64,000 nucleotides of DNA from an uncultured bacterium (GTDB lineage: Bacteria > Edwardsbacteria > AC1 > EtOH8): contig CALMGM010000005.1 in NCBI GenBank assembly GCA_937863685.1, forward strand, positions 909,046-973,045, in the 5' to 3' direction. Of this stretch, positions 3,456 to 58,045 are shown piece by piece. The notes beneath the pieces were generated by a model, which saw nothing but the letters and a program-made list of their open reading frames with translations, did not search any database and was not told where the DNA came from. The position numbers were made by a program, and so were the translations under genes. Position 1 is the stretch's first letter. The number at the start of each line of letters is the position of its first letter.

Positions 3456-4916
3456 TTACAGAACCAGCCAGGACAGCAGGATCACTAAAATGAATACCGT
3501 GAATACCGCACCGTAGGAGATGGAGAGGAGATTCAATTTGATAAAGGTGGGCCAAAAGCCCTGCTGATAGAATCTTCTCATGCTCAAGTAAAGGTATAGC
3601 GGAATGGTCATGATCAGCAGACTCAGCCACTGGCTGAGCACTGGGATATGGAAAAAGCGGGTGGAGGTGATAACCAGAATGGTCAAAAACACAAAGGCGT
3701 GAAAATGAATTGAGAATATCAGGTGCTGCATGTAATAGCGTCCGGAGCGGATGTAGAGCAATTTCAGCAGCAGGGCGAACAGCGGCATCAGCAGGAACAT
3801 GCTCTGGGCGAACCGCTCGATAAGCGTCTCCACGAACAGTTCGGGATTTTTGGTTCCGCGGCGGTATCCTTCCTCGACCATCTTGGTAAAGCGGTGGTCG
3901 AAGCTTAAGGTATCCTCTTGGGCGACATTGATGTCTTGCCCGGTTATTGGCTCGGAACCATTATCCGTAGCTTTGATTTCAATTCTTGTTTCGGGCTCCT
4001 CCTGAAGCTCCTCCAGATGGGAGCGCTTGCTGGTCATGGCCAGCAGCAAAAACAACACGAAACTGATGATTACGTAGGTTCTTAAGGGCGGGACGTAGCG
4101 CACTCTCCGGCCGGCTATATAATCGGCGGTAAGGAAACCCGGTTTGGTGATCAGCGGGGCCAGGGTGTGAATGAAGCGCGAGTCGATCCGCAGTTCATCC
4201 CACAGGAATTCGTGCAGCAGCTCCTTGAAGGGGACATTGATGTCGGTGTTCTTCTGGCCGCAGTCGTGGCAGTATTTGCCGTGCAACAATGCTCCGCAAT
4301 TTAGGCAGTTATCCGGCAGAGCATGATGAATCCTCGATTTGCGGGGAACAAAAAAACCGGTGGTTTCCTTATAATTCAAATATTCCTCGCCCAGCTGCAG
4401 TTCCAGTTCCTTCTCCTCGATGCGGCACAGCAGATAAAAGGCGGGGATCCACAACAAGGAGAACAGTATCAGGAAGGGAGAATTCAGTATCAAGGCGGCC
4501 ACCAAGGGGAGAGCCATCTTGCCCAGGGCCTGGGGATGGCGGATCTTTTGATAGATCCCGCGGGCGGAGGCCCGGCGGTCCTTTACGGCAATGCTCTCCG
4601 GTCCGGCGTCGATCATCCCCCTTATCCAAATGACGATGGAGGGAAGGCCGATGATGATAGCGGCAGCCAGAGAGAACCAGCGATTCCAAAGAAATTCGGC
4701 AGGGATGAATTTGAAGGCCGGGAAAGCCTTATACAGCAGGTAGCTGATGAAATGCAAAACCAAAGACGCCGCCGATATGATCCTGAAAATAACGGACCGC
4801 AGTTCGGTTCGGCCTTCTGGGGCCAAGGCTTGGATAGATCCGGCGACGCTGCGATATCCGAAGAACAGATACAGCCCGGCGGAAAGGAACATTAATATAA
4901 GGATAAACCAGGACAT
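3456..4916 (-). CDS. Membrane fusion protein: ICMT/PEMT-like methyltransferase domain + zinc ribbon + DUF3667-like membrane domain
   Basis: RHPQALG...EEKELELQLGEEYLNYKETTGFF methyltransferase motif; CLNCGALLHGKYCHDCGQ zinc ribbon; C-terminal polytopic region resembling DUF3667. Confidence 0.5.
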   Translation of the reverse strand: MSWFILILMFLSAGLYLFFGYRSVAGSIQALAPEGRTELRSVIFRIISAASLVLHFISYLLYKAFPAFKFIPAEFLWNRWFSLAAAIIIGLPSIVIWIRGMIDAGPESIAVKDRRASARGIYQKIRHPQALGKMALPLVAALILNSPFLILFSLLWIPAFYLLCRIEEKELELQLGEEYLNYKETTGFFVPRKSRIHHALPDNCLNCGALLHGKYCHDCGQKNTDINVPFKELLHEFLWDELRIDSRFIHTLAPLITKPGFLTADYIAGRRVRYVPPLRTYVIISFVLFLLLAMTSKRSHLEELQEEPETRIEIKATDNGSEPITGQDINVAQEDTLSFDHRFTKMVEEGYRRGTKNPELFVETLIERFAQSMFLLMPLFALLLKLLYIRSGRYYMQHLIFSIHFHAFVFLTILVITSTRFFHIPVLSQWLSLLIMTIPLYLYLSMRRFYQQGFWPTFIKLNLLSISYGAVFTVFILVILLSWLVL

Positions 4917-4937
4917 AAACGATTAATAATTTGATTA

Positions 4938-5387
4938 TTATTTTACCATATCCTCGGCCTTGGAAAAATGCATCTGAAAAATCTTCCACGTGCCATCGAT
5001 TTTCTCCAAAACGCCTGTCCAGCGCACCTTCTCCCAGTTGGCAGGCTTGCCTTTAAAGGTATTGAAATCATCCAGCAGGCAGGCAAACCAGGCGGTCTGT
5101 AATGTCGCCGATAAGTTTATCCTGAGTTCATGCAGCTCGTATTTTATCGCCTTAAAATCATCCCGCATGAAGAAATCCCCCGTCATTTTTTTAAATTGCT
5201 CAATGCCCCTGACGGTACTTTTGGAATCGGTCTGAAAGAAGAACAGTTCGTCATTGTCTATCATGGAAGAATAAAGCTGGTCCAGGTTCTTATTGTTCAC
5301 CGCCCAGCCGATGCTGTCCCGTATGACCTGGTCAATTATTTTGATCTCGGGATGGGGATTGTCGATGTTATTGTAGGTGTAGGGCAT
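4938..5387 (-). CDS. NTF2-like / SnoaL-like domain protein
   Basis: 149 aa soluble protein with NTF2-fold-like pattern; weak. Confidence 0.4.
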   Translation of the reverse strand: MPYTYNNIDNPHPEIKIIDQVIRDSIGWAVNNKNLDQLYSSMIDNDELFFFQTDSKSTVRGIEQFKKMTGDFFMRDDFKAIKYELHELRINLSATLQTAWFACLLDDFNTFKGKPANWEKVRWTGVLEKIDGTWKIFQMHFSKAEDMVK

Positions 5388-12312: not shown

Positions 12313-12371
12313 ACCTGCCACAAAGACACAGAGTATAACTATTCACAATTTACAATTCACGATTTGGCTTA

Positions 12372-14497: not shown

Positions 14498-14529
14498 AAG
14501 AAGCCGTGGCGTTATGCCACGGCTTTTTG
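14498..14529. terminator. Palindromic hairpin family copy 1 (aagccgtggc-gttat-gccacggctt + T5)
   Basis: 10-bp perfect stem + T-run; preceded by second hairpin ctctcctga-taa-atcaggagag at 14461-14482. Confidence 0.6.
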
Positions 14530-14565: not shown

Positions 14566-15663
14566 ATGACTAGAAGACTACATAGATACAAATTGCATGT
14601 GCTTTGGGATCTCTGGGGTGAAGGAAAGCGCTATTTTGCCGGGACGATACATAAGAAACGGGCCGAGGTATTGGAACTGATAGGGGAATGGTCCCGGGCG
14701 CTGGGGATCTACCGGGAGATCCTGGATGTCTATGAGGCTGCCTCACTGTCCGGACCGGCTGCGATACAGCGGGTCAATATGGGTCGGGTGATGTATAAGA
14801 TGGGTGATCATGAGGAAGCAATCGCTCTTCTGAAACAAGCGGAGGAAATTTTAAAGAAGCTTGATGAATCAAAGAACCTGTCCGACATTTACAGTCATCT
14901 TGGTAATATCCGTCTTAACCAGGCCCGATACCAAGAGGCCGAGGACCTTTTCCGGAAACGTTTGGACCTCAATGCCAGGGTCAACAATGCTGTGGTATTT
15001 TGCGCCACCTACGGGAATCTGGGGAACCTGGAATATGCCAGGGGCCAGTTGGAAAAGTCCGAGGAATGGTATCGCCGCCAGTTGGAATCCGCCGTCCGGG
15101 AAGGTATCAAAGAGTATCAAGCCGTGGCGATAGGGGCCATGGGCTGTATTCACGCCCAGCGGGAGGAATACGATTTGGCTCTGAAAGCCTTCCAAGATTT
15201 CCTCGGATTGGCCAGAACCACCGGCGATACCGGAAAAATAAGAGTGGCCTTAGGCAACATCGGCAACTACCATATCCAGTTTGGGCAGTATGCGGAGGCC
15301 AGGGAAATATATCGTCAGCAGTTGGCTCTGGCCGAACGGATGGGAGAAAAAAAGGGGATCTGTCTGGCGTGGGGCAATCTGGCCAAGGCCAGCCATCGTC
15401 TGGGCCAGGAACAGCGGGCCCGGGAAGAGATCCTGTCGGCAATTGCCATCGGAGAGAAGATGGGGCTAAAATATTTCCTGCCCGAGCAATACCTGCTTCT
15501 GGCCGAAGTTCGTCTGGCTTTGAATCTGTTTCCCGAGGCAAAGGGAGCCGCTTTGCGAGCCCGGGAACTGGCAATAGAGAACGGCGACCCGGACGATGAA
15601 AAAAGCGCCCAGGAGCTGCTGGACGCAATTTCAGCGAAGCTGATTAAGCAATCCGGCGGATAG
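14566..15663 (+). CDS. TPR-repeat protein
   Basis: Multiple 34-aa TPR-like repeats (A..Y...G.....A); start moved downstream of hairpin. Confidence 0.6.
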   Translation: MTRRLHRYKLHVLWDLWGEGKRYFAGTIHKKRAEVLELIGEWSRALGIYREILDVYEAASLSGPAAIQRVNMGRVMYKMGDHEEAIALLKQAEEILKKLDESKNLSDIYSHLGNIRLNQARYQEAEDLFRKRLDLNARVNNAVVFCATYGNLGNLEYARGQLEKSEEWYRRQLESAVREGIKEYQAVAIGAMGCIHAQREEYDLALKAFQDFLGLARTTGDTGKIRVALGNIGNYHIQFGQYAEAREIYRQQLALAERMGEKKGICLAWGNLAKASHRLGQEQRAREEILSAIAIGEKMGLKYFLPEQYLLLAEVRLALNLFPEAKGAALRARELAIENGDPDDEKSAQELLDAISAKLIKQSGG

Positions 15664-15710
15664 AATGTTAAAAAGCGGTGCAAAGACCGCAGCATAGATG
15701 ATAATAAAAA

Positions 15711-15742
15711 AGAAAGCCGTGGCTTTATGCCACGGCTTCTTG
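15711..15742. terminator. Palindromic hairpin family copy 2 (bidirectional, between convergent genes)
   Basis: agaaagccgtggc-tttat-gccacggcttct. Confidence 0.6.
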
Positions 15743-15756
15743 GGGTTAAATGTGCT

Positions 15757-16392
15757 TTATTGTTTTGGGAACCCCCAACTTAACCAAGATACATATTGAT
15801 CACGCAGCACTTCAGCAATATCAAATATTTCGTCGGCTTGTGCTGTTGTAACTTTAAGGCCATGTACTGCAGCATTGCACCAATTAATTATATATACAAG
15901 AAGATCCGCTTGTCTATAAGTGATAGCTGAATTCTCTTTTAGTTTTCGAACAATAATATTTGCACTATCGCGGTTATTTATTTGAACTTTAAAGCCTTTT
16001 GCAAGATTCTTTAATAAAGTTTCAAATTCAATGCGTAAACCAGCTAAAGCAATTGTTGGGTCTTGTTCGATAAGGTTACGATAAAAAGATAACTCTAATC
16101 CAGAAGGGGATGGGGATAGTCCTAGATTTAACATACGGGCATTAGCTTCTGTTAAAGGAATCGTAGCTGTTGCTTTTTTCTCACCCTCTTTTTTAACCAC
16201 CGAAGATAACGCTTTGGCTTCTTTGATTTCTTCGGGGAACGTTTCAATTGATACGCCACCCGGTAAGTCCGCTTTTTTCACGCGCTTGATCAATAAAACG
16301 ATTTCTTCTCTAAAAGAGATAACTAAAAGAAAAGTTACTAATGGCCAAATAATAGCCTTAATATATTCGAGTATTAATTTTGCAACATCCAT
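15757..16392 (-). CDS. Membrane-anchored DUF4145 (HEPN-like) domain protein; AT-rich
   Basis: One N-terminal TM helix; C-terminal block ANIIVRKLKENSAITYRQADLLVYIINWCNAAVHG...AEVLRDQY resembles DUF4145 (R..GN.AAH core); GC far below flanks. Confidence 0.45.
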   Translation of the reverse strand: MDVAKLILEYIKAIIWPLVTFLLVISFREEIVLLIKRVKKADLPGGVSIETFPEEIKEAKALSSVVKKEGEKKATATIPLTEANARMLNLGLSPSPSGLELSFYRNLIEQDPTIALAGLRIEFETLLKNLAKGFKVQINNRDSANIIVRKLKENSAITYRQADLLVYIINWCNAAVHGLKVTTAQADEIFDIAEVLRDQYVSWLSWGFPKQ

Positions 16393-16483
16393 GATTTATT
16401 CCACGCTGTTCAATTATTTTAACATGTAACAATAGTGGCATTGTAGTAAATAATATCAACTATGTCAAGTATAATATTATCTT

Positions 16484-16513
16484 AAGAAGCCGTGGCTTAT
16501 GCCACGGCTTCTT
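16484..16513. terminator. Palindromic hairpin family copy 3 (13-bp perfect stem aagaagccgtggc/gccacggcttctt, loop ttat)
   Basis: Read directly. Confidence 0.6.
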
Positions 16514-16545
16514 GCGGCCGCATCTTGCTACTGTGTCTGCATTAT

Positions 16546-17034
16546 TTATAGATTTGTAGTTTCCAAGATCCTTTTAAGGTTCTCCCCCTCTTCTTTCATG
16601 TGTTTTTCTACAGAAGCTATTCCGCTTGCCAGCTTATTTTTTGCAAAGGTTTTAACCAGTCGTCCAACCCTAAAAGACCCCAGGGCTGTGAAAATACATC
16701 CATTTTGCGTCGGTTCGATAATAAATGTATTCTTGGGGTAATATATTCTTAACAGCCAAAATGAGGGCACATATTCAATAGTTCTATTGGGAATTACTTT
16801 TGTAACGCGAAATGTCAAGGTATGCAGTTCGCCTTTAAGATATTCTTTGGCGCGAAGCACAGAGCCTTCTTGCCAAGGCTTTCCCTTGATCCAACAAAAC
16901 TCAATATGGTCCTGGGGATGCCAGAGCTTATAGTTTTGATCATCTGTAATGCCGGTCAGGAAATTAAAAACCGCCTCGGGGCTGGCCTTAATTTCTATCG
17001 AATCTTTTAGAATGATATCTTCCAATATCCTCAT
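16546..17034 (-). CDS. SRPBCC (START/Bet v1-like) domain protein; AT-rich
   Basis: 162 aa with polyketide-cyclase/SRPBCC-like pattern; low GC. Confidence 0.5.
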   Translation of the reverse strand: MRILEDIILKDSIEIKASPEAVFNFLTGITDDQNYKLWHPQDHIEFCWIKGKPWQEGSVLRAKEYLKGELHTLTFRVTKVIPNRTIEYVPSFWLLRIYYPKNTFIIEPTQNGCIFTALGSFRVGRLVKTFAKNKLASGIASVEKHMKEEGENLKRILETTNL

Positions 17035-17134: not shown

Positions 17135-17165
17135 AAGAAGCCGTGGCGTAACGCCACGGCTTCTT
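17135..17165. terminator. Palindromic hairpin family copy 4 (14-bp stem, loop taa)
   Basis: aagaagccgtggcg-taa-cgccacggcttctt. Confidence 0.6.
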
Positions 17166-17204
17166 GCGTCCCTTCCCTTATTGGGGAAGGGATTGAGGGT
17201 TAGG

Positions 17205-19746: not shown

Positions 19747-19776
19747 AAAGCCGTGGCTTAAAAGCCACGGCTTTTT
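19747..19776. terminator. Palindromic hairpin family copy 5 (bidirectional between speD and feoAB)
   Basis: aaagccgtggctt-aa-aagccacggcttttt. Confidence 0.6.
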
Positions 19777-25988: not shown

Positions 25989-26083
25989 GCCGATATTTAA
26001 CACAAATCCAAAGGCATCACTTTTTTCTACTCTTAAATTATGGGGACTAGAACTGCACAGAAAAGACCATATAAAATCTCTTT

Positions 26084-26108
26084 GTGTCTTGGTGTCTTGG
26101 TGGTTAAA
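26084..26108 (+). promoter_or_regulatory. Tandem direct-repeat motif GTGTCTTGGTG-TCTTGGTG-GTTAAA upstream of lpxC-fabZ; near-identical copy at 58019-58045
   Basis: 24/26 identity between the two copies, both just upstream of essential operons. Confidence 0.35.
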
Positions 26109-26285: not shown

Positions 26286-27590
26286 ATGTCCAAACTGCAG
26301 AAAACCATAGTCACCGAGGTCAGCTTCTCCGGGGTGGGGGTCCATACCGGGAACGTCACCAAGATCACCTTCAAACCGGCCCCGGCGGACAGCGGCATAA
26401 AGTTCATCCGCAGCGACCTGCCCCAGGCCCCGGAGATCCCGGCCCTGATCGACTACGTGGTGGAGACCGCCCGGGGCACCACCCTGGGACGGGATGTGGA
26501 CGGCCAGCTGGTAAAGGTCCACACCGTGGAGCATGTTTTGGCGGCGGTGGCCTCGCTGGAGATAGACAACCTTAGGGTGGAGATGGACAACAACGAGCCG
26601 CCCATCGGGGACGGCTCCTCGCGCCCCTTTTTGGACATCCTGAAAAAGGCCGGAACGGTGGAGCAGGACGCCCCCCGGAAATATTTCGAGCTGCCCCGGA
26701 TGGTATCCATAGCCGACGATGAGGTCCAACTGGTGGCCAATCCGGCCAAGGACTTCCGGATAAGCTTCACCATAGACTTCGACCACCACCTGCTGCGCAG
26801 CCAGTACGCCTCCTTCGCCATCGACGGGGAAGTGTTCGACAAGGAGCTGGCCGACGCCCGGACCTTCTGCCTGGCCCGGGACGTGGAGATGCTCCGGTCC
26901 CAGGGGCTGATCAAGGGCGGCAGCCTGGACTCGGCGGTGGTGATCGGCGAACAGGGCATAGAGAACAAGGAGCCGCTGCGCTACCCCGACGAATTCGTGC
27001 GGCACAAGATACTGGATCTGCTGGGCGACCTGACCCTGCTGGGCATGCCCATCAGGGGACATGTGATATCAATCAAATCCGGTCACCGCTCCAACGTCAA
27101 ACTGGTCCGGGAGATCAAGAAGGTCTACGACGAGATGGAGAAACAGAAGAAGGGCCCGGTGTTCGACATCAACGCCATCGCCGGGATGCTGCCGCACCGC
27201 TATCCCTTCCTGATGGTGGATCGGATCATAGACCTGGAAGAGGGCAAGCGGGTGGTGGGGATCAAGAACGTCACCATCAACGAGCCGTTCTTCCCCGGCC
27301 ACTTCCCCGACCGGCCGGTGTTCCCGGGGGTGCTGATCATCGAGGCCCTGGCCCAGACCGGAGCGTTCATGATACTGCATTCGGTGGAGAACTACCATCA
27401 GAAACTGCTGTACTTCGCCGCCATAGACAAGGTGCGTTTCCGCAAGCCGGTGGTGCCGGGCGACCAGCTGAGGTTCGAGCTGAGAATGGTCTCGTTCAAG
27501 CGGGGGATCTGCAAGATGGAGGGCCAGGCCCTGGTGGACGGCCAGGTGGTGTGCGAGGCCGAGATGACCGCGGCGGTGGTGGATAGGTGA
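26286..27590 (+). CDS. lpxC/fabZ: Bifunctional UDP-3-O-acyl-GlcNAc deacetylase / 3-hydroxyacyl-ACP dehydratase (LpxC-FabZ fusion)
   Basis: N-terminal LpxC blocks (KTIVTEVSFSGVGVHTG...), C-terminal FabZ hot-dog (LPHRYPFLMVDRI...FFPGHFP..PVFPGVLIIEA). Confidence 0.9.
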   Translation: MSKLQKTIVTEVSFSGVGVHTGNVTKITFKPAPADSGIKFIRSDLPQAPEIPALIDYVVETARGTTLGRDVDGQLVKVHTVEHVLAAVASLEIDNLRVEMDNNEPPIGDGSSRPFLDILKKAGTVEQDAPRKYFELPRMVSIADDEVQLVANPAKDFRISFTIDFDHHLLRSQYASFAIDGEVFDKELADARTFCLARDVEMLRSQGLIKGGSLDSAVVIGEQGIENKEPLRYPDEFVRHKILDLLGDLTLLGMPIRGHVISIKSGHRSNVKLVREIKKVYDEMEKQKKGPVFDINAIAGMLPHRYPFLMVDRIIDLEEGKRVVGIKNVTINEPFFPGHFPDRPVFPGVLIIEALAQTGAFMILHSVENYHQKLLYFAAIDKVRFRKPVVPGDQLRFELRMVSFKRGICKMEGQALVDGQVVCEAEMTAAVVDR

Positions 27591-27611
27591 TTTCAATGTT
27601 CTACAAGTTCG

Positions 27612-27625
27612 AAAGGTTCTAAATG
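27612..27625. repeat. Left arm of inverted repeat bracketing four-helix-bundle gene 1 (aaaggttctaaatg)
   Basis: 13/14 complementary to 28030-28043 (catttggaaccttt). Confidence 0.5.
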
Positions 27626-27647
27626 TTCGAAATGAAGTGATACCGAT

Positions 27648-28001
27648 ATGAAAGAACCTAAATTCACAGAATTGCTGGTCTGGAAAAAGGCCCACCTGTT
27701 AGCATTGGAAATCTATAAAGTAACATCAAAGCTTCCCAAAGAGGAAATGTTCGGTCTATCATCACAAATGAGACGGGCCTCGCTTTCGGTGGCGGCAAAT
27801 ATAGCCGAGGGATGCAAAAAATCAAAGCCAGATTTTCGCCGATATTTAAAAATATCCGAGGGCTCACTGGAGGAGTTAAAATATTACTTTATCGTTTCTC
27901 GGGATCTCGGCTATATAGACGATGAAAAGCATTCGGGCTTTATCACTAGTGCTAATGAGGTTGGGTTTTTATTACATCGTCTTTGGTCCAGTCTTGGTTA
28001 A
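27648..28001 (+). CDS. Four-helix-bundle protein (23S rRNA intervening-sequence protein / Avd-like family), copy 1
   Basis: LLVWKKAHLLALEIYKVTSKLPKEEMFGLSSQMRRASLSVAANIAEGC...GSL.EL..YF pattern of TIGR02436; lower GC than flanks. Confidence 0.8.
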   Translation: MKEPKFTELLVWKKAHLLALEIYKVTSKLPKEEMFGLSSQMRRASLSVAANIAEGCKKSKPDFRRYLKISEGSLEELKYYFIVSRDLGYIDDEKHSGFITSANEVGFLLHRLWSSLG

Positions 28002-28029
28002 TTAGGACAGACCTTAAAGACTGGTGCTT

Positions 28030-28043
28030 CATTTGGAACCTTT
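28030..28043. repeat. Right arm of inverted repeat bracketing four-helix-bundle gene 1
   Basis: See 27612-27625. Confidence 0.5.
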
Positions 28044-28068
28044 AAAACATTTAATTCATTTACAACCT

Positions 28069-28842
28069 ATGGAAAATATTCATCCCACTGCCATCATAGA
28101 CCCGTCGGCCAAGATAGGCAACGACGTGGAGATCGGCCCTTTCACCATCATCGGCCCGGAATGCGTCGTCGGCGACAACTGCCGGATAGGCTCCTCGGTG
28201 GCCATCCACCGCTGGACCGAGCTGGGAGAAGGCTGCCGGGTGTGGCACGGGGCCTCTTTGGGCGGCGACCCCCAGGACCTCAAGTTCAAGGGCGGCCGGA
28301 CCACGGTCAAGATAGGCAAGAATACCGTGATCCGCGAATATGCCACCATCAATCTTTCCACCGACGAGGGCGATGTCACCCTGGTGGGCGACAACTGCTT
28401 TTTAATGGCCTACTGCCACATCGCCCACGAATGCACGGTGGGCAACAATGTCATCCTGGCCAACTCGGCCACCCTGGCCGGCCATGTGACGGTGGAGGAT
28501 TTCGCCATCATCGGCGGGCTGACCCCCGTGCACCAGTTCGCCAGGGTGGGCTGCTACTGCATGATCGGGGGATCATCCGCCGTCCAGAAGGACGTGCTGC
28601 CCTACACCAAGGCCTTCGGCAATCCCCTGGGCATGTACGGGCTTAATTCGGTCGGCCTTACCCGCCGCGGCTTCAGCCAGGAGCAGCGGGACCTGATAGA
28701 AAAGGCCTACCGCCTTATCTTCCGTTCCAAGTTGAACACCAGCCAGGCCCTGGGCCGCATCAAGGACAGCCTGCCGATGTCCCCGGAGATCAAACACATC
28801 CTGGAGTTCATCGAAGGCTCGGCCCGGGGGATAACCAAATAG
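28069..28842 (+). CDS. lpxA: Acyl-ACP--UDP-N-acetylglucosamine O-acyltransferase LpxA
   Basis: MENIHPTAIIDPSAKIGNDVEIGPFTIIG hexapeptide-repeat left-handed beta helix, LpxA-length. Confidence 0.9.
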   Translation: MENIHPTAIIDPSAKIGNDVEIGPFTIIGPECVVGDNCRIGSSVAIHRWTELGEGCRVWHGASLGGDPQDLKFKGGRTTVKIGKNTVIREYATINLSTDEGDVTLVGDNCFLMAYCHIAHECTVGNNVILANSATLAGHVTVEDFAIIGGLTPVHQFARVGCYCMIGGSSAVQKDVLPYTKAFGNPLGMYGLNSVGLTRRGFSQEQRDLIEKAYRLIFRSKLNTSQALGRIKDSLPMSPEIKHILEFIEGSARGITK

Positions 28843-28980
28843 AGACTTCCTGACCATCATAGCCCCGTATCAGTCATGATATGGGGTTTTCTGTTGAGCA
28901 GGACTAATTTTATTTATAACTTTACGCTTGATATTGGATTTGTTTTACAGTAATATATTTATAACGAAAGGCGTTAATAA

Positions 28981-29754
28981 ATGAAAACAAAAATTGACAT
29001 AGCAAAAAATTGGCTGCCCCGCTACACCGGCATGGAGCTGAATGAATTCGGCGATTATATTCTGCTCACCAATTTCGATGATTACATCCAGAGCTTCGCC
29101 GAGCGGTTCAACTGCGAGATCAAGGGACTGGGCCGTCCCATGCAGGCCGCCACCAACCCGTCCGGGTTGTCCATAATCAATTTCGGCATGGGCAGTCCCA
29201 ACATCGCCACGGTGATGGACCTGCTGGTGGCCCGCCATCCCAAGGGGGTGTTGTTTCTGGGCAAGTGCGGCGGGCTTAAAAAGACCACCGAGCTGGGGCA
29301 TTTCATTTTGCCCATCGGGGCCATCCGGGGCGAGGGGACCAGCAACGATTATCTGCCGCATGAGGTGCCGGCCCTGCCGTCGTTCAAACTGCACAAGTTC
29401 GTCTCCGACAAGCTCAAACAGCGGAAGCTGGACTACCGCACCGGGGTGATCTACACCACCAACCGCCGGGTGTGGGAATGGGACGCCGATTTCAAGAGGT
29501 ACCTGCGGAAGCTGACCGCCATCGGCATTGACATGGAGACCGCCACCCTGTTCATAGTGGGCCACGCCAACCAGATCGCCCGGGGCGCCCTGCTGATGGT
29601 GTCGGACATTCCCATGGTGCCCCACGGCATCAAGACCGAGAAGAGCGACCGGGAGGTAACCAAAAAGTTCAGTAAGATCCATCTGGATATAGGCATCGAA
29701 AGCATGACCGACATCGGCCAGAAGGGCGAAAAGATCAAGCATTTCCAGTACTGA
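28981..29754 (+). CDS. Nucleoside phosphorylase / short AMP-nucleosidase-like protein (PNP_UDP_1 family)
   Basis: GMGSPNIATVMDLL...GKCGGL and IDMETATL motifs of PNP/MTAN/AMP-nucleosidase catalytic domain. Confidence 0.5.
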   Translation: MKTKIDIAKNWLPRYTGMELNEFGDYILLTNFDDYIQSFAERFNCEIKGLGRPMQAATNPSGLSIINFGMGSPNIATVMDLLVARHPKGVLFLGKCGGLKKTTELGHFILPIGAIRGEGTSNDYLPHEVPALPSFKLHKFVSDKLKQRKLDYRTGVIYTTNRRVWEWDADFKRYLRKLTAIGIDMETATLFIVGHANQIARGALLMVSDIPMVPHGIKTEKSDREVTKKFSKIHLDIGIESMTDIGQKGEKIKHFQY

Positions 29755-29871
29755 TATACAAGACCCTGGTTGAAGAATGAATATAGAATATTGAATACGG
29801 AATGATTTGTGATCTCAGATATTAGTTTGCATTCTAGCTTCAATATTCGGTATTCTCGTTAGGAGGATATT

Positions 29872-31146
29872 ATGCAGAAGTTATTGTCGTTTGTTCTTTT
29901 GATAATATTAATTTGCGGGATAACAGAAGCCTCCCAGGTGATGATCATCCGGGTGGAGGACGCCATCAGCCCGGCCTCGGCCCGTTTCATGGTGCAGTCA
30001 ATCGAAAGGGCCCAGGAGCAGAAGGCGGAATGCTTGATCATCGAGATGGACACCCCCGGCGGGCTGGACCAGTCCATGCGCCAGGTGATCAAAGCCATTA
30101 TGGCCTCTGATATTCCGGTGGTGGTCTACGTGGCGCCCCAGGGATCGCGGGCGGCCTCGGCCGGGGCCTTCATCACCTTGTCCTCCCACGTGGCGGCCAT
30201 GTCGCCGGGCACCAGCATCGGGGCGGCCCATCCGGTGTCCGTCGGCACCGGGCAGATGGACAGCACCATGTCCGGCAAGGTGACCAACGATGCCGCGGCC
30301 TACATCCGCTCCATAGCCGAAAAACGGGGCCGCAACATCGCCTGGGCCGATTCGGCGGTGCGCCGCAGCGTCTCATTATCCGAGACCGAGGCCCTCAAGC
30401 GGAAGGTGATAGACCTGATCGCCGACGATACCGAAGCCCTGCTGGATTTGCTGGAAGGAAGGCAGGTCATTATGGGCCAGGATACGGTGGTGCTTCACAC
30501 CAAAGGGGCGGAGAAGGTCCTGGTGGAGATGAACTGGCGGGACAGGATCCTGTCCATCATCTCCAATCCCAATATCGCCTACATTTTGTTCATGGCCGGC
30601 CTGCTGGGGCTGTACTTCGAGTTCTCCAATCCCGGGGCCATCTTCCCCGGGGTGGTGGGGGCCATCTCGCTGATACTGGCCTTCTTTTCGTTCCAGACCC
30701 TGCCGGTCAATTACGCCGGGATGCTGCTGATAATTCTGGCCATAGTGCTGTTCATCCTGGATGTCAAGATAGCCTCGCACGGAATACTCAGCATAGGAGG
30801 TATAATTGCCATGTTTTTGGGATCGGTGATGCTTTTTCAGACCCCGGACCCGGCCATGAGGGCCTCGCTGCAGGTGATCATCCCGGTGGTGCTGGTGACC
30901 GCGGCCTTCTTCGTGATCGGGGTCTGGCTGTCCATAAAGACATTGAGGACCAGGCCCGTCTCGGGCGACCAGGGCCTGCTGGACCAGGAGGGCGACGCCC
31001 GGACGATTGTCAACAAGGATGGCGGCCGGGTATTCGTGGCAGGGACCCACTGGAGCGCATGTTCGGATGCCGAGATCGCCGAGGGGGCCAAGGTCAAGGT
31101 GGTGGAAGTAAAAGGGATGAAGCTGAAAGTCATAAAGAGCGAATAG
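29872..31146 (+). CDS. NfeD-like membrane-bound ClpP-class serine protease
   Basis: Signal peptide, ClpP-like N-domain (IIEMDTPGG...GSRAASAGAFI), TM segments, C-terminal OB-fold; partner stomatin downstream. Confidence 0.75.
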   Translation: MQKLLSFVLLIILICGITEASQVMIIRVEDAISPASARFMVQSIERAQEQKAECLIIEMDTPGGLDQSMRQVIKAIMASDIPVVVYVAPQGSRAASAGAFITLSSHVAAMSPGTSIGAAHPVSVGTGQMDSTMSGKVTNDAAAYIRSIAEKRGRNIAWADSAVRRSVSLSETEALKRKVIDLIADDTEALLDLLEGRQVIMGQDTVVLHTKGAEKVLVEMNWRDRILSIISNPNIAYILFMAGLLGLYFEFSNPGAIFPGVVGAISLILAFFSFQTLPVNYAGMLLIILAIVLFILDVKIASHGILSIGGIIAMFLGSVMLFQTPDPAMRASLQVIIPVVLVTAAFFVIGVWLSIKTLRTRPVSGDQGLLDQEGDARTIVNKDGGRVFVAGTHWSACSDAEIAEGAKVKVVEVKGMKLKVIKSE

Positions 31147-31151
31147 CGGAA

Positions 31152-31162
31152 AGCGTGTAGCG
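31152..31162. repeat. Left arm of 11-bp perfect inverted repeat bracketing four-helix-bundle gene 2 (agcgtgtagcg)
   Basis: Perfect complement of 31554-31564 (cgctacacgct). Confidence 0.55.
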
Positions 31163-31181
31163 AACAGGGGATGGGCGTTGC

Positions 31182-31553
31182 ATGAACAATACAAAAAGCT
31201 TCTCCGATCTGATAGTATGGCAAAAGTCGTACAAATTATGCGTTGAGGTCTATAAAGTATCCAAGGAGTTTCCCAGCCAGGAAAACTTCGGTTTGATCTC
31301 ACAAATTAGAAGGTGTTCGGTTTCTATTCCCTCAAATATAGCCGAAGGCTATGCTCGCAAAAACCGCAAGGAATACATTCAATTTTTATATATGGCAAAC
31401 GGATCGCTGGCGGAACTGCAGACACAATTGATGCTTTCGAAAGATATTGGTTATTTAAATGAAAATATTTATAATGTTTTATATTCTTTGTCACAGGAAG
31501 TCGGCAGAATGCTCTGGAAAATGATAGTTGGCTTGAGACAAAAGGAACCTTAA
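31182..31553 (+). CDS. Four-helix-bundle protein (23S rRNA intervening-sequence protein / Avd-like family), copy 2
   Basis: LIVWQKSYKLCVEVYKVSKEFPSQENFGLISQIRRCSVSIPSNIAEGYAR...GSLAELQTQL; paralogue of 27648-28001. Confidence 0.8.
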   Translation: MNNTKSFSDLIVWQKSYKLCVEVYKVSKEFPSQENFGLISQIRRCSVSIPSNIAEGYARKNRKEYIQFLYMANGSLAELQTQLMLSKDIGYLNENIYNVLYSLSQEVGRMLWKMIVGLRQKEP

Positions 31554-31564
31554 CGCTACACGCT
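31554..31564. repeat. Right arm of inverted repeat bracketing four-helix-bundle gene 2
   Basis: See 31152-31162. Confidence 0.55.
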
Positions 31565-31619
31565 ATTCGCTTTACGCTTATATATCAAATCTAATAAACT
31601 TAATAAAGGAGAGAAAGCC

Positions 31620-32381
31620 ATGACTGGTTACATTGTCTTAATTATCTTCGTGCTGTTCATTTTGCTCAACACCTTCAAGATCCTGCGGGAATACGAGCGG
31701 GGCGTGGTCTTTAGGCTGGGGCGCTACGTGGGCACCCGCGGCCCGGGACTGATCATCCTGATCCCCCTGTTCGAGAAGATGGTCAAAGTGACCCTGCGCA
31801 CCATCGCCCTGGACGTGCCGGCCCAGGAGGTGATCACCAAGGACAACGTCTCGGTGAAGGTCAACGCCGTGATGTACTTCCAGGTGTTCCAGCCCGACAA
31901 AGCCATCATCGCGGTGGAGGACTACATGTACGCCACCAGCCAGATGGGACAGACCACCCTCCGCTCCATTTTGGGCGAGCACGAGCTGGACGACCTGCTC
32001 TCCAACCGGGAGAAGATCAACCAGACCCTGCAGAAGGTGATCGACGATCGCACCGACCCCTGGGGCATCAAGGTCTCGGCGGTGGAGGTCAAGGACGTGG
32101 ATCTGCCGGAGGGCATGAGGCGGGCCATGGCCAAGCAGGCCGAGGCCGAGCGGGAGAGACGGGCCAAGGTTATCCACGCCGACGGCGAGTTCCAGGCTTC
32201 AACCAAACTGCGGGATGCCGCCACAGTGATGGCCGCCGAGCCGGTGACCGTGCAGCTGCGCTACCTGCAGACATTGACCGAGATCGCGGTGGAGAAGAAT
32301 TCCACCATCATCTTCCCCCTGCCGTTGGAATTCATGAGATATTTTTCCAAGATATTGGATAATACCGAGAAGAAGGCATAA
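31620..32381 (+). CDS. SPFH/band-7 (stomatin-like) protein
   Basis: [16 protein letters not shown]...LIILIP SPFH N-terminus, coiled-coil tail [14 protein letters not shown]. Confidence 0.85.
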
Positions 32382-32400: not shown

Positions 32401-33147
32401 TTGGGAAACAAAACCCGGTCGCCGTTTTATCAGAGATTTTTCCTGAATACCATAAGGGACATAAATATTGTAGGGGTAGGTTTAAAACCTGCCCCTACGT
32501 CGGAATATATTCATATGACCCTCTCCCCCCAAATAATATCCGGCATCAATATAAAACACCGTTCCACCTACACCTACCTGGGGTGGGCCGGGTTTTATCT
32601 GCTGCTCGGGGTCTATCAAGGGCTGGTGGGACGGATATCCACCACCTTCGGCGAGATCCTGGGCGCGGATATCCTGATCAACATCGCCTCGCCCATCATA
32701 CTGTCCGGCGGGGGGACGATCGCGGCCCTGGTCGAGAGCAGGTTCCGGGGTTTTTTCGGACTGCCCTGGATCTATCTGTTCATCACCTGTGTGGTCACCA
32801 TAGTGCTGCCCGGGCTCTGGATATTTAAAATGGGCGGCTGGGGAACGCTGTTCAGCGCAGCCTTGTTTTTTTCCAGAATCAACTGGCTCTTTCTGCAGCG
32901 AAATGGGAACCTTGAGATCCGCCACCTTTACACCCGCGGCATTTTAGGGCCCATTCTCTTTCTTACTCCGGCCCTTATCATCACCTGCACAGTGATGGGC
33001 AGGCGGTCGTTGTCCATGCACGCCACCGACTGGGTGCCGTTGTTCGGCGTCATATATTTTACCCTGCAGGCAGCATTCGAGGAGTTCATGCTTCGCCGGG
33101 CCGCGGAAAAACAAAACAATTCTTCGGAGGATCGGCGTACTTTATGA
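32401..33147 (+). CDS. Hypothetical polytopic membrane protein
   Basis: Hydrophobic ORF; start uncertain (possibly MTLSPQ about 32515). Confidence 0.35.
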   Translation: MGNKTRSPFYQRFFLNTIRDINIVGVGLKPAPTSEYIHMTLSPQIISGINIKHRSTYTYLGWAGFYLLLGVYQGLVGRISTTFGEILGADILINIASPIILSGGGTIAALVESRFRGFFGLPWIYLFITCVVTIVLPGLWIFKMGGWGTLFSAALFFSRINWLFLQRNGNLEIRHLYTRGILGPILFLTPALIITCTVMGRRSLSMHATDWVPLFGVIYFTLQAAFEEFMLRRAAEKQNNSSEDRRTL

Positions 33148-43345: not shown

Positions 43346-43867
43346 GTGTGTCAAAAAATGCGTGAGATCGTTTATCATAAAGTGCCTGACGAGTTGCAAG
43401 GAGATACGATATATCCTTTAAACAGACTTAAGGATATCTTTCCGGGTGTGTATCAAAAGCAAGCAGCAAAATACACAGGAAGAGAGAATTTGCTGCAAAG
43501 GAAAGTACCGATTTTAAATTGTCTGTGGAATGACGTGATCCATCTTACGGCCATAAATCCAAAAATAATATTCTCATTTTTACGACAGATAGGTTTTGAA
43601 TACCCTCTTCATGGCTTTTATGAAATAGATTTTTCCAAGTTGGATCCGGATTATTGTATAGAAATGATTTATTCCGGCGGTGAAAGGAAATACCGAAAGA
43701 TCGAATCTGACAAATTCCCCAAAGTTGAAAATTTGCCAGCAGAAACCATTGAGTATTTCAAAAGCTGCTGGAAAGAAAAAACCCACCCCCTGCTGTTCAA
43801 TGGTATCCCGCATATTCTGTATAAGGGCGCGATAAATATCAAAGGAACAGCAATAATCGAAGTTTAA
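43346..43867 (+). CDS. Hypothetical protein, AT-rich
   Basis: 173 aa, no confident family; GC far below flanks. Confidence 0.3.
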   Translation: MCQKMREIVYHKVPDELQGDTIYPLNRLKDIFPGVYQKQAAKYTGRENLLQRKVPILNCLWNDVIHLTAINPKIIFSFLRQIGFEYPLHGFYEIDFSKLDPDYCIEMIYSGGERKYRKIESDKFPKVENLPAETIEYFKSCWKEKTHPLLFNGIPHILYKGAINIKGTAIIEV

Positions 43868-50168: not shown

Positions 50169-51230
50169 ATGAATAAATATTTTATCATCCTTACAATGCT
50201 TTGTGTAACATCAGTGTTAAATGCTCAAAGCCTCGAAGACCTGGAGTCTCTTTATGGACAAGGAAAATTTAATGAGGTTATAGATAATTCAGCAAATATG
50301 CTGGCTAACGAACCAGATGACCCGATAATTAATATGTTGGTGGGAAGATCTTACGCAGATAAGATGAATTTTGAGGAAGCCATACCATATTTGAGAAAGG
50401 CAATAGAAAGCGATAGAACCAATTCATGGCCCAAAGCCTGGTCGTTAGTTTATCTGGGGTCGTGTTATTTTGCCATCGGCAACCGTGAGGAATCTATTAA
50501 ATATATCAAGGAATGTATATCGATGAATGCGACCAAGAATGTTACAAACAGTGCCTTAATTAAAAACGTGCTTTTCGGTTTCGACCAAAGTTATAATAAT
50601 TGGGAAGCAAGAGAGACGGAACATTTTGTCTTTCACTTTCAACCGCTATCGCTCAAAGATATAAATGATATTGACAAATATATTAAAATCCGGGAAATGG
50701 CTTTTATGCATATAAGTGAGTTTTTTGTCAGCAATTTGCCAAAGAAAATAGATTTTTTTATCTGGCATTCCCGAGAAGATATCAAAGCTGTTCTCAAATC
50801 AAACGGAGGTTTTGCAAAACCTGAATATTGCATTATCCATGCTTGTTTTGATCAAACTCCCGGTCATGAGATTACCCATGTCGTTTCAAATTATACAGCG
50901 ACGGTTATAAATAAAACCGTTCTAATCAACGAGGGAACAGCCGTTTACTTTGACCAAACAAGTCGCGATCAATTGGCCTTAGCTAGGAAAGCCATAAAAG
51001 AAAAAGGCTACTCAAGCATCTCTCTTAAGGAGATATGGAATAATCGTGTTATGCCGGAAGCTGTGATGTATCCGATTGGCGGCGCATTCGTAAAATACTT
51101 GATAGATACCGAAGGAAAAGACAAATATCTTGAATTATTTAAAGACCAGACATATCAAAACGGCCATAAAATATACGGCGATAAATTTGAAAAGATTGTT
51201 TCCGAATTCGAAAACAGTTTGTTTCAGTAA
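50169..51230 (+). CDS. Secreted TPR-containing protein with possible HExxH motif; strongly AT-rich
   Basis: Signal peptide MNKYFIILTMLCVTSVLNAQS; PGHEITHVV; GC about 35% vs about 60% flanks. Confidence 0.4.
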   Translation: MNKYFIILTMLCVTSVLNAQSLEDLESLYGQGKFNEVIDNSANMLANEPDDPIINMLVGRSYADKMNFEEAIPYLRKAIESDRTNSWPKAWSLVYLGSCYFAIGNREESIKYIKECISMNATKNVTNSALIKNVLFGFDQSYNNWEARETEHFVFHFQPLSLKDINDIDKYIKIREMAFMHISEFFVSNLPKKIDFFIWHSREDIKAVLKSNGGFAKPEYCIIHACFDQTPGHEITHVVSNYTATVINKTVLINEGTAVYFDQTSRDQLALARKAIKEKGYSSISLKEIWNNRVMPEAVMYPIGGAFVKYLIDTEGKDKYLELFKDQTYQNGHKIYGDKFEKIVSEFENSLFQ

Positions 51231-57940: not shown

Positions 57941-58018
57941 TGCTATCCGAAAAACCAGCCGGAATTTTAACTGCGGAGACGCAGAGATCGCCAAGATTTA
58001 TAAATCTGCATTTCCCTT

Positions 58019-58045
58019 GGTGTCTTGGTGCCTTAGTGGTTTAAA
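58019..58045 (+). promoter_or_regulatory. Second copy of GGTGTCTTGGTG-CCTTAGTG-GTTTAAA motif, immediately upstream of rimP-nusA-infB
   Basis: See 26084-26108. Confidence 0.35.

Follow-up and report, generated by a model that had tools for sequence, protein, structure and literature searches.

A four-helix-bundle gene between inverted tandem arrays in the nfeD-stomatin spacer of an Edwardsbacteria genome, and related cassettes in many phyla

Anatomy of the cassette in the nfeD-stomatin spacer

The DNA analysed here, a 64,000-nt stretch of contig CALMGM010000005.1 from an uncultured Edwardsbacteria bacterium (the window), carries a small cassette with inverted-repeat arms in the spacer that separates nfeD from a stomatin gene. 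The upstream host gene, nfeD, runs from 29872 to 31146 on the plus strand and matches the Pfam domains NfeD1b_N, NfeD_membrane and NfeD. The downstream host gene (31620-32381, plus strand) encodes a stomatin/SPFH protein with a match to Band_7. These domain matches confirm the identity of both genes, which an earlier note on this DNA had described as a pair split by an inserted gene at 31147-31619. That span is in fact the whole spacer: the open reading frame (ORF) occupies 31182-31553, and the left arm of the insert starts inside nfeD. In total the cassette measures 441 nt (31138-31578), has the same orientation as the operon and exactly fills the interval from the stop codon of the gene before it to the ribosome-binding site of the gene after it.

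The ORF at 31182-31553 (plus strand) encodes an Avd-like protein of 123 amino acids (aa) that belongs to the PF05635 (23S_rRNA_IVP)/TIGR02436 family of four-helix-bundle (4HB) proteins. It matched PF05635 with E = 2e-42 (144.1 bits, cut-off 33.8) over profile positions 2-105 of 106, and TIGR02436 with E = 1.5e-38 (131.3 bits, cut-off 24). PF05635 and PF22296 were its only Pfam matches, and the nearest solved structure is 2GSC (XCC0516). A leader of 19 nt (31163-31181, plus strand) precedes the gene and contains the Shine-Dalgarno-like sequence AGGGGA (31166-31171) 10 nt ahead of the ATG; the orthologues described below have GGAG/AAGGA.

The two arms are inverted tandem arrays and not the halves of a simple palindrome. 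Upstream, four AGCGNNN heptads in tandem (31138-31162, plus strand) read AGCGAAT AGCGGAA AGCGTGT AGCG and overlap the last nfeD codons with the stop codon TAG (31144-31146). The inverted array, CGCT ACA CGCT ATT CGCT TTA CGCT (31554-31578, plus strand), starts right after the 4HB stop codon. It is followed by a spacer (31579-31619, plus strand) that ends in the stomatin Shine-Dalgarno sequence AAGGAG (31606-31611), 28 nt after the right arm. As stated in the earlier note, the 11-mers agcgtgtagcg (31152-31162) and cgctacacgct (31554-31564) are exact reverse complements. A repeat search showed that this perfect match is the core of longer, 25-nt arms with 84% complementarity. Note that another perfect 11-bp pair, shifted by one unit (31138-31148 with 31561-31571), exists out of register because the arrays are periodic. 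The periodic motif AGCGNNNAGCGNNNAGCG occurs five times in the window (0.19 copies expected), every copy lying in the two arms.

To score flanking repeats, 140 nt upstream of a gene were aligned by the Smith-Waterman method with 140 nt downstream, the latter taken as the reverse complement, and the score was compared with those of shuffles that keep mononucleotide composition only. The 31182-31553 gene scored 31 (z = 8.3), a value reached by none of 100 shuffles. Among 61 window genes, z was at least 7 for the two 4HB genes and for three genes beside an unrelated palindrome resembling repetitive extragenic palindromic (REP) sequences, and for no others. The GC content of the insert is 39%, compared to 59-60% in its flanks, and both window inserts have 39-40% between genes of 59-62%. 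The 31138-31578 cassette is thus compositionally foreign.

In RNA folds of both window cassettes, minimum-energy as well as centroid, the arms close round the ORF. For the 31182 cassette, the duplex energy of left and right arm (RNAduplex) was -35.9 kcal/mol, compared to -11.1 +/- 3.0 kcal/mol for shuffled arms. Simple consensus scans gave no sigma-70-like promoter match on the coding strand, either within the 31182 ORF or ahead of it, and both inserts were free of terminator-like sites. There was no Rfam match in 27400-32000 and no match to the PADLOC models of anti-phage defence.

The paralogous cassette between lpxC/fabZ and lpxA

A second 4HB gene (27648-28001, plus strand; 117 aa) lies between fused lpxC/fabZ and lpxA, so that both window cassettes split a conserved gene pair. 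Its product is 38% identical to that of the 31182 ORF and matches the same two families, in agreement with the earlier note's proposal that the genes are paralogues. The flank z of this gene was 6.7, again with 0 of 100 shuffles as high. Its arms consist of period-9 units with the core GTTC upstream (27595-27637, plus strand) and GAAC downstream (28027-28060, plus strand). Thus each cassette has its own arm sequence within an equivalent architecture, AGCG heptads in one and period-9 GTTC units in the other, as had been suggested. The lpxA ORF is listed from a GTG at 28024, but the right arm fills 28027-28060, and the ATG at 28070 (MENIHPTAIIDP...) is the likely true start.

Conservation and turnover in related genomes

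The order nfeD-4HB-stomatin was also found in three other Candidatus Edwardsbacteria species, with 4HB proteins 93, 87 and 77% identical to that of the window. Between orthologues, dN/dS was 0.056-0.064 at dS of at least 0.6, indicating that the protein is maintained by strong purifying selection. In the alignment of the four species the AGCG/CGCT cores are invariant at their 7-nt phase. Complementarity of the arms, whose loss the earlier note had named as a refutation, persists in the L001, L003 and L005 orthologues, with duplexes that are still stable (-30 to -39 kcal/mol), and the arms of L005 carry extra units. Because the spacers between the cores differ among orthologues, the exact 11-bp match is peculiar to this genome; this part of the earlier description is not conserved.

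When metagenomes were scanned with the stomatin protein, 80 loci were obtained. At scan loci with nfeD upstream, outside the Edwardsbacteria relatives, the gap between nfeD and the stomatin gene was 3-197 nt and mostly 10-60 nt. The two genes are therefore normally adjacent, as the earlier note had stated. Among the metagenome loci, every nfeD-stomatin pair from a more distant source (54-71% stomatin identity) was free of any insert. The contents of the spacer also differ between close relatives. L088, with a stomatin 97.6% identical to that of L003, holds at the same site a 4HB protein only 58-62% identical, with arms of AGGGGAC-type heptads. In L089 the 4HB cassette is replaced by an unrelated low-GC ORF of 223 aa, which has no arms. 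(This ORF, at 1079-1750 of L089, has a lipoprotein-like N-terminus and no Pfam match.) Homology between these alternative alleles stops in the last ~7 nfeD codons and resumes at the stomatin ribosome-binding site.

The lpxC/fabZ-lpxA spacer showed similar turnover. The paralogous cassette is missing from three related species (L168, L169 and L170), whose spacers contain ADH and CBAH genes; DUF6487 and a 188-aa ORF; and two DUF6487 genes with HIT, HTH_26 and a 427-aa ORF, respectively. None of these other accessory genes has flanking inverted repeats. The nfeD-stomatin and lpxC-lpxA spacers are thus insertion hot spots at which cassettes are gained, lost and swapped, and both window cassettes are accessory DNA. 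Each related species carries different accessory genes in the lpxC/fabZ-lpxA spacer, and operon spacers act as general insertion hot spots in the Edwardsbacteria lineage. The absence of the paralogous cassette from three species and the three different inserts at the nfeD-stomatin site bear out the recurrent insertion that the earlier note had proposed.

These data also bear on the idea that the 4HB gene is a domesticated host gene, working with NfeD/stomatin or regulating the operon, with the arms as an operon-specific regulatory hairpin. Retention of the cassette at the site in four species with dN/dS of ~0.06 would be expected in that case. However, in close relatives the site is occupied by another cassette or an unrelated gene, all the more distant pairs lack any insert, and the same architecture is found in lpxC-lpxA, leuC/D/B, accB-accC and cas (CRISPR-associated) operons (PMC3936711). 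Domestication is therefore largely refuted by the distribution of the cassettes, and we consider it very improbable.

Generality of the armed architecture

We next surveyed the 4HB family in two samples. The first, with one genome per species, was scanned with an alignment of 30 family members, and the best-scoring 80 loci, from very diverse phyla, contained 84 4HB genes. The second, independent sample consisted of 55 4HB genes from viral contigs. In this survey ORF starts were estimated and arm ends were taken from local alignment. A flanking inverted repeat with z of at least 4 was detected at 73% of the 84 4HB genes; among 157 ORFs next to them in the same loci the proportion was 3.8% (p = 1.7e-27, Mann-Whitney). 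The same architecture was present at 41 of the 55 viral-contig genes (75%). Thus about three quarters of 139 relatives, in many phyla and on phage contigs, are bracketed by inverted tandem arrays. The literature searched contained no paper linking such arrays to PF05635 genes, and the bracketing appears to be a widespread but undescribed architecture. None of the 80 loci lies in 23S rRNA, and the 23S sarcin-ricin loop motif was found at 0 of 167 loci, including the 80 sampled relatives. The interpretation in the earlier note is essentially right, and the pattern is far more general than the two cassettes on which it was based.

Among the 84 genes the arms are nearly always built of tandem units, such as AGGGNNN, AGCGTNN, AGGTCGT, AAGGCACA and AGGATTCA. 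Periodicity was detected at 36% of flanks and at 4-5% of controls. The unit period is 7 (the commonest), 8 or 9 and was equal in both arms in 18 of 18 elements. A typical arm has 3-4 units (~30 nt), and the median cassette length is 478 nt. In 60 of 64 family members the GC content of the element is below that of its flanks. The upstream arm is G-rich (G > C on the coding strand) in 58 of 60 cases, and 67 of 77 4HB genes lie on the strand of their upstream neighbour.

The repeat unit differs among cassettes, is shared by the left and right arm of any one of them and changes with the protein. Pairs of cassettes with similar arms made up 0% of pairs below 40% protein identity, 22% at 60-75% and 89% above 75% (Mantel test, 0/500); the aligned arm-similar pairs above 75% identity are syntenic orthologues. 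Note that what looked like horizontal transfer linking Flavobacterium (L064) with Sphingobacterium (L077) was rejected: the two share 98% identity over their entire 2.3-kb overlap, which indicates the same region or a binning error.

The nature of the units argues against a further explanation, by which the arms are G-quadruplex (G4) regulatory repeats, as proposed for the Xanthomonas repeat GGGAATC, and flank the gene by coincidence. Many left arms do consist of GGG-containing heptads in ~4 copies, and GGGAATC oligonucleotides formed G4 in vitro (PMC4692102). However, the AGCG and GTTC cores of the window arms lack G runs, making a G4 impossible and excluding such a function for the window element. 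Many other unit types, including AGTTGCT, ACGTTCA and TAGTTAT, are likewise free of G tracts, and inverted-partner pairing across 4HB genes is far above the control rate. As an account of the architecture, we regard G4 formation as scarcely credible.

Several 5-kb loci (L027, L032, L055, L056 and L061) hold two or three 4HB genes, suggesting that the cassettes tend to cluster, as they do in the window (two within 4 kb). In viral locus L173 (4-3483) the 4HB region lies inside a single 1159-aa ORF with Eco57I/N6_Mtase/MmeI methylase domains of restriction-modification type; this ORF may have arisen by fusion, or by in-frame reading through a cassette.

Gene-less hairpins, a GxxExxY cassette and published heptamer repeats

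The leu operon of a planctomycetote (L021) contains three inserts. A 4HB cassette lies upstream of leuC; it is orthologous to a cassette in the syntenic L022, and the two differ by one compensatory C:G to T:A change. Between leuC and leuD is a 68-nt gene-less hairpin of 4 + 4 AGGGNNN heptads (4171-4246), which is missing in L022. Between leuD and leuB (4745-5172), a GxxExxY/PDDEXK_3 gene (TIGR04256, PF13366) is flanked by inverted CGCGGATTT units; at this site L022 has two arms only and an apparent remnant of the 3' end (4687-4717). Thus, gene-less hairpins built of cassette units occur as insertions. Neither a viral scan with a single protein nor the loci collected yielded further GxxExxY cassettes, so that this type is represented by one locus. 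Satellite arrays of the cognate unit were detected within 2.5 kb of 12 cassettes.

The gene of the crystallised XCC0516-type 4HB protein (2GSC) sits between accB and accC in Xanthomonas. Its left array, GGGAATC GGGAGTG GAGAATC GGGAATC, faces an inverted array (30 nt, 87% complementary), and the cassettes span 1930-2372 of L228 (Xanthomonas campestris) and 1930-2370 of L230 (X. citri). In both loci the ORF appears to extend upstream into the left array, and accC begins directly after the right array. In X. campestris, where GGGAATC forms 70 convergent pairs, it has been reported to be a repeat that forms quadruplexes and has no known role (PMC4692102). In Geobacter metallireducens, 53 inverted pairs of tandem sites ~100 bp apart have been ascribed to unidentified regulators (PMC2700814). 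Term searches gave no mention of the 4HB/S23 gene family in either paper.

Comparison with known systems

The cassette most resembles the ORF-bearing intervening sequences (IVSs) of 23S rRNA known from Leptospira and Coxiella burnetii. It shares with them a PF05635 ORF, its size (441 nt compared to 428-444 nt in Coxiella), a GC content below that of the host, complementary ends that pair as a stem enclosing the ORF (25-nt arms here) and a sporadic distribution suggesting horizontal spread. The Coxiella IVS has 428 nt and ~36% GC; it contains an S23p ORF, its terminal stem measures 28 bp, and RNase III cleaves it in vitro (PMC4990558). In contrast to IVSs, which interrupt rRNA helix 9, 25 or 45, the cassette lies in the spacer of an mRNA operon, and RNase III cleavage, demonstrated for rRNA IVSs, would be expected here by analogy. 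The arms of the cassette are 7-9-nt tandem arrays.

The heptanucleotide repeat families (Xanthomonas GGGAATC, the 'global regulator sites' of Geobacter metallireducens and TAACTGA of Beggiatoaceae) share tandem units of 7-9 nt in 3-6 copies, an intergenic position between co-oriented genes and a frequent arrangement as inverted pairs, and the Xanthomonas units are those of the XCC0516-type arms. The difference is that many of these pairs are gene-less and that the respective papers made no link to PF05635, proposing G4 or binding of IHF/HU.

The resemblance to other mobile elements is more limited. Like integron cassettes and MITEs (miniature inverted-repeat transposable elements), the cassette is small and promoter-less, has one ORF and imperfect palindromic ends and gathers at hot spots. 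Unlike integron cassettes, it has mutually inverted arms on both sides instead of a single 3' attC, and no integrase is found among its neighbours. Unlike MITEs and DNA transposons, it lacks a target-site duplication and a transposase. The longest word shared outside the arms averaged 4.02 nt compared to 3.93 nt after permutation, a value reached by 48 of 200 permutations; note that this test is weak, as arm ends are fuzzy. Presence/absence polymorphism, a transposon trait, is seen in the paralogous cassette (absent from L168-L170), the L021 hairpin (absent from L022) and the swap in L088.

The Avd protein of diversity-generating retroelements (DGRs) has a homologous fold (PF22296, 49.7 bits; a pentameric barrel in related structures). 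In addition, sequences on the two sides of the template also pair in DGR RNA, and stem-loops of RNA are bound by Avd. However, membership of the DGR Avd family was rejected, as the NF033474 score was 45.3 bits compared to a cut-off of 80. No reverse transcriptase was found among the neighbours identified within ~5 kb, and DGR template or variable repeats were not nearby. DGR-linked Avd genes, sought as a negative control, were not identified in the viral sample; three neighbours scanned in L183 had no Pfam match.

RNA processing and recognition of the arms by protein

Taken together, we think it on balance probable that 31138-31578 is a selfish accessory cassette of IVS type in an operon spacer, transcribed by read-through and processed by RNase III at its stem. 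Transcription would start at the host promoter and continue through the cassette, and the arms would pair in the transcript as an imperfect stem of ~25 bp. RNase III would probably cut this stem, as in rRNA IVSs. Such a cut might release or stabilise the 4HB message and part the cistrons of nfeD and stomatin, both of which would still be expressed. The phased 4-nt cores probably double as protein contact sites, most plausibly for the pentameric 4HB protein. We infer read-through and cleavage by analogy with those IVSs. The co-orientation with the operon, the cassette's lack of a convincing promoter or terminator and the fixed polarity of the arms all fit this model.

Several observations weigh against processing of an RNA stem as the full explanation. 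About one quarter of the family members have no arms. The 3-nt spacers between the cores drift without compensation across orthologues, and only the AGCG/CGCT cores are kept. This combination fits recognition by protein, or homogenisation at the DNA level, better than selection on a helix. Mismatches in the arms include 56 of G.U type and 63 of A.C type and thus bear no RNA signature, and sense and antisense arm duplexes are equally stable (33 vs 30, p = 0.62). In view of the missing G.U excess and energy gap, the constraint cannot be assigned to the sense transcript. The tandem-array form of the arms is not accounted for by an RNA stem alone, and the RNase III precedent is an analogy only, because the element lies outside rRNA. 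The lack of a G.U excess, the equal stability of both strands and the selection on phased cores therefore argue that pairing of the RNA explains the arms only in part.

An alternative is a mobile system at the DNA level, similar to the single-copy genes of REP-associated tyrosine transposases (RAYTs) and the hairpin-forming REP doublets (REPINs) linked to them. Here the 4HB pentamer would bind the cores of its own arms, as single-strand or hairpin DNA, and mobilise or maintain the cassette and the gene-less hairpins, with RNA pairing being incidental. In both systems a short repeat, present in inverted copies, brackets a gene, hairpins of this repeat without a gene are dispersed over intergenic spacers, and the repeat type follows the gene lineage. 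The flanking repeat also occurs as a gene-less hairpin in L021 and L036, and in Xanthomonas, where GGGAATC forms 70 convergent pairs (PMC4692102).

Besides cores held at a fixed phase with free spacers and the absence of a G.U bias or strand preference, this alternative is favoured by the co-divergence of arm type and protein (Mantel 0/500), the satellite arrays of the same unit near 12 cassettes and the insertion polymorphism of a gene-less hairpin with its neighbour's unit (L021 vs L022). The published, unexplained inverted pairs also fit (70 in X. campestris, PMC4692102; 53 in G. metallireducens, PMC2700814), GGGAATC flanks the XCC0516-type gene, and proteins of the Avd family are positively charged, nucleic-acid-binding pentamers (bioRxiv 10.1101/2023.10.23.563531).

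On the other hand, the 4HB proteins have no known catalytic motif and lack the HUH/Y1 transposase motifs of RAYTs, the repeats are tandem arrays and not single palindromic REPs, and target-site duplications were not found. The GxxExxY gene, of nuclease fold, uses the same architecture, so that arms can exist without any 4HB protein, and the usual number of units per arm is 3-4, not 5. Moreover, the arm polarity of 58 to 2, together with co-orientation with host transcription, indicates a constraint at the transcript level. We therefore regard purely DNA-level mobilisation as possible but doubtful. That a protein, plausibly the pentameric 4HB, reads the repeats, as RAYTs do with REPINs, whether as a rival or as a complement to the IVS-type cassette with a processed stem, is nevertheless supported by the lack of an RNA signature, the phased cores, the co-divergence of arms and protein and the gene-less hairpins.

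Extending these observations, we propose tentatively, and as a conjecture that may well fail, that PF05635 4HB genes and at least some GxxExxY genes are the cargo or the driver of hairpin elements that span phyla and form a class not recognised before. Such elements would end in inverted tandem arrays of 7-9-nt units, with the pentameric 4HB protein reading its own cores. Cassettes and gene-less derivatives of them would colonise operon spacers between stop codon and Shine-Dalgarno sequence, rRNA helices and phage genomes, and the Xanthomonas GGGAATC repeats and Geobacter paired sites would be their footprints. The short tandemly repeated repetitive (STRR) sequences of cyanobacteria are possible further footprints. 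To our knowledge, neither a function nor an origin has been established for IVS elements and S23p/4HB proteins since 1993. The evidence presented here ties this puzzle to that of the abundant heptanucleotide repeats of Xanthomonas, Geobacter and others, which have been ascribed to G-quadruplexes or unidentified regulators. There is also a risk in annotation: the cassettes split conserved operons (nfeD-stomatin, lpxC-lpxA, leuCDB, accBC and cas genes), and an annotator can take them for genuine parts of the operon or for CRISPR-associated genes.

Other features of the window

The neighbours named within ~5 kb of the cassette are lpxC/fabZ, lpxA, PNP_UDP_1, nfeD, stomatin, a PF01035 gene of 6-O-methylguanine DNA methyltransferase type and PF08713 (DNA_alkylation); the nearby ORF at 32401-33147 has no Pfam match. 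Two low-GC islands (36-42% GC) lie at 43346-43867 (a 173-aa ORF with no Pfam match) and 50169-51230 (a 353-aa ORF), neither among the window genes with high flank-repeat scores.

The REP-like palindrome, AAGAAGCCGTGGC-nnnn-GCCACGGCTTCTT, occurs four times (14498-14529, 15711-15742, 16483-16514 and 17135-17166), with a similar word at 19747-19773. It brackets the low-GC minus-strand ORFs 15757-16392 (a weak DUF4145 match) and 16546-17034 (Polyketide_cyc2). The high flank scores of the genes at 14566-17034 were ruled out as a sign of cassettes, since this palindrome is a separate family and not a pair of tandem arms.

Solo tandem 8-mers, TCTTGGTG / CCTTGGTG, are located at 26079-26102 and 58015-58038, in both cases intergenic and just upstream of genes, and a CACAAAG/ATTCACA array at 12318-12364. 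When the flanking sequence was read, no inverted partner was noticed for these arrays. The 8-mers resemble the pyrimidine-rich 'right-arm' type CTTTGTGCC from other phyla, and both kinds of array could be cassette scars.

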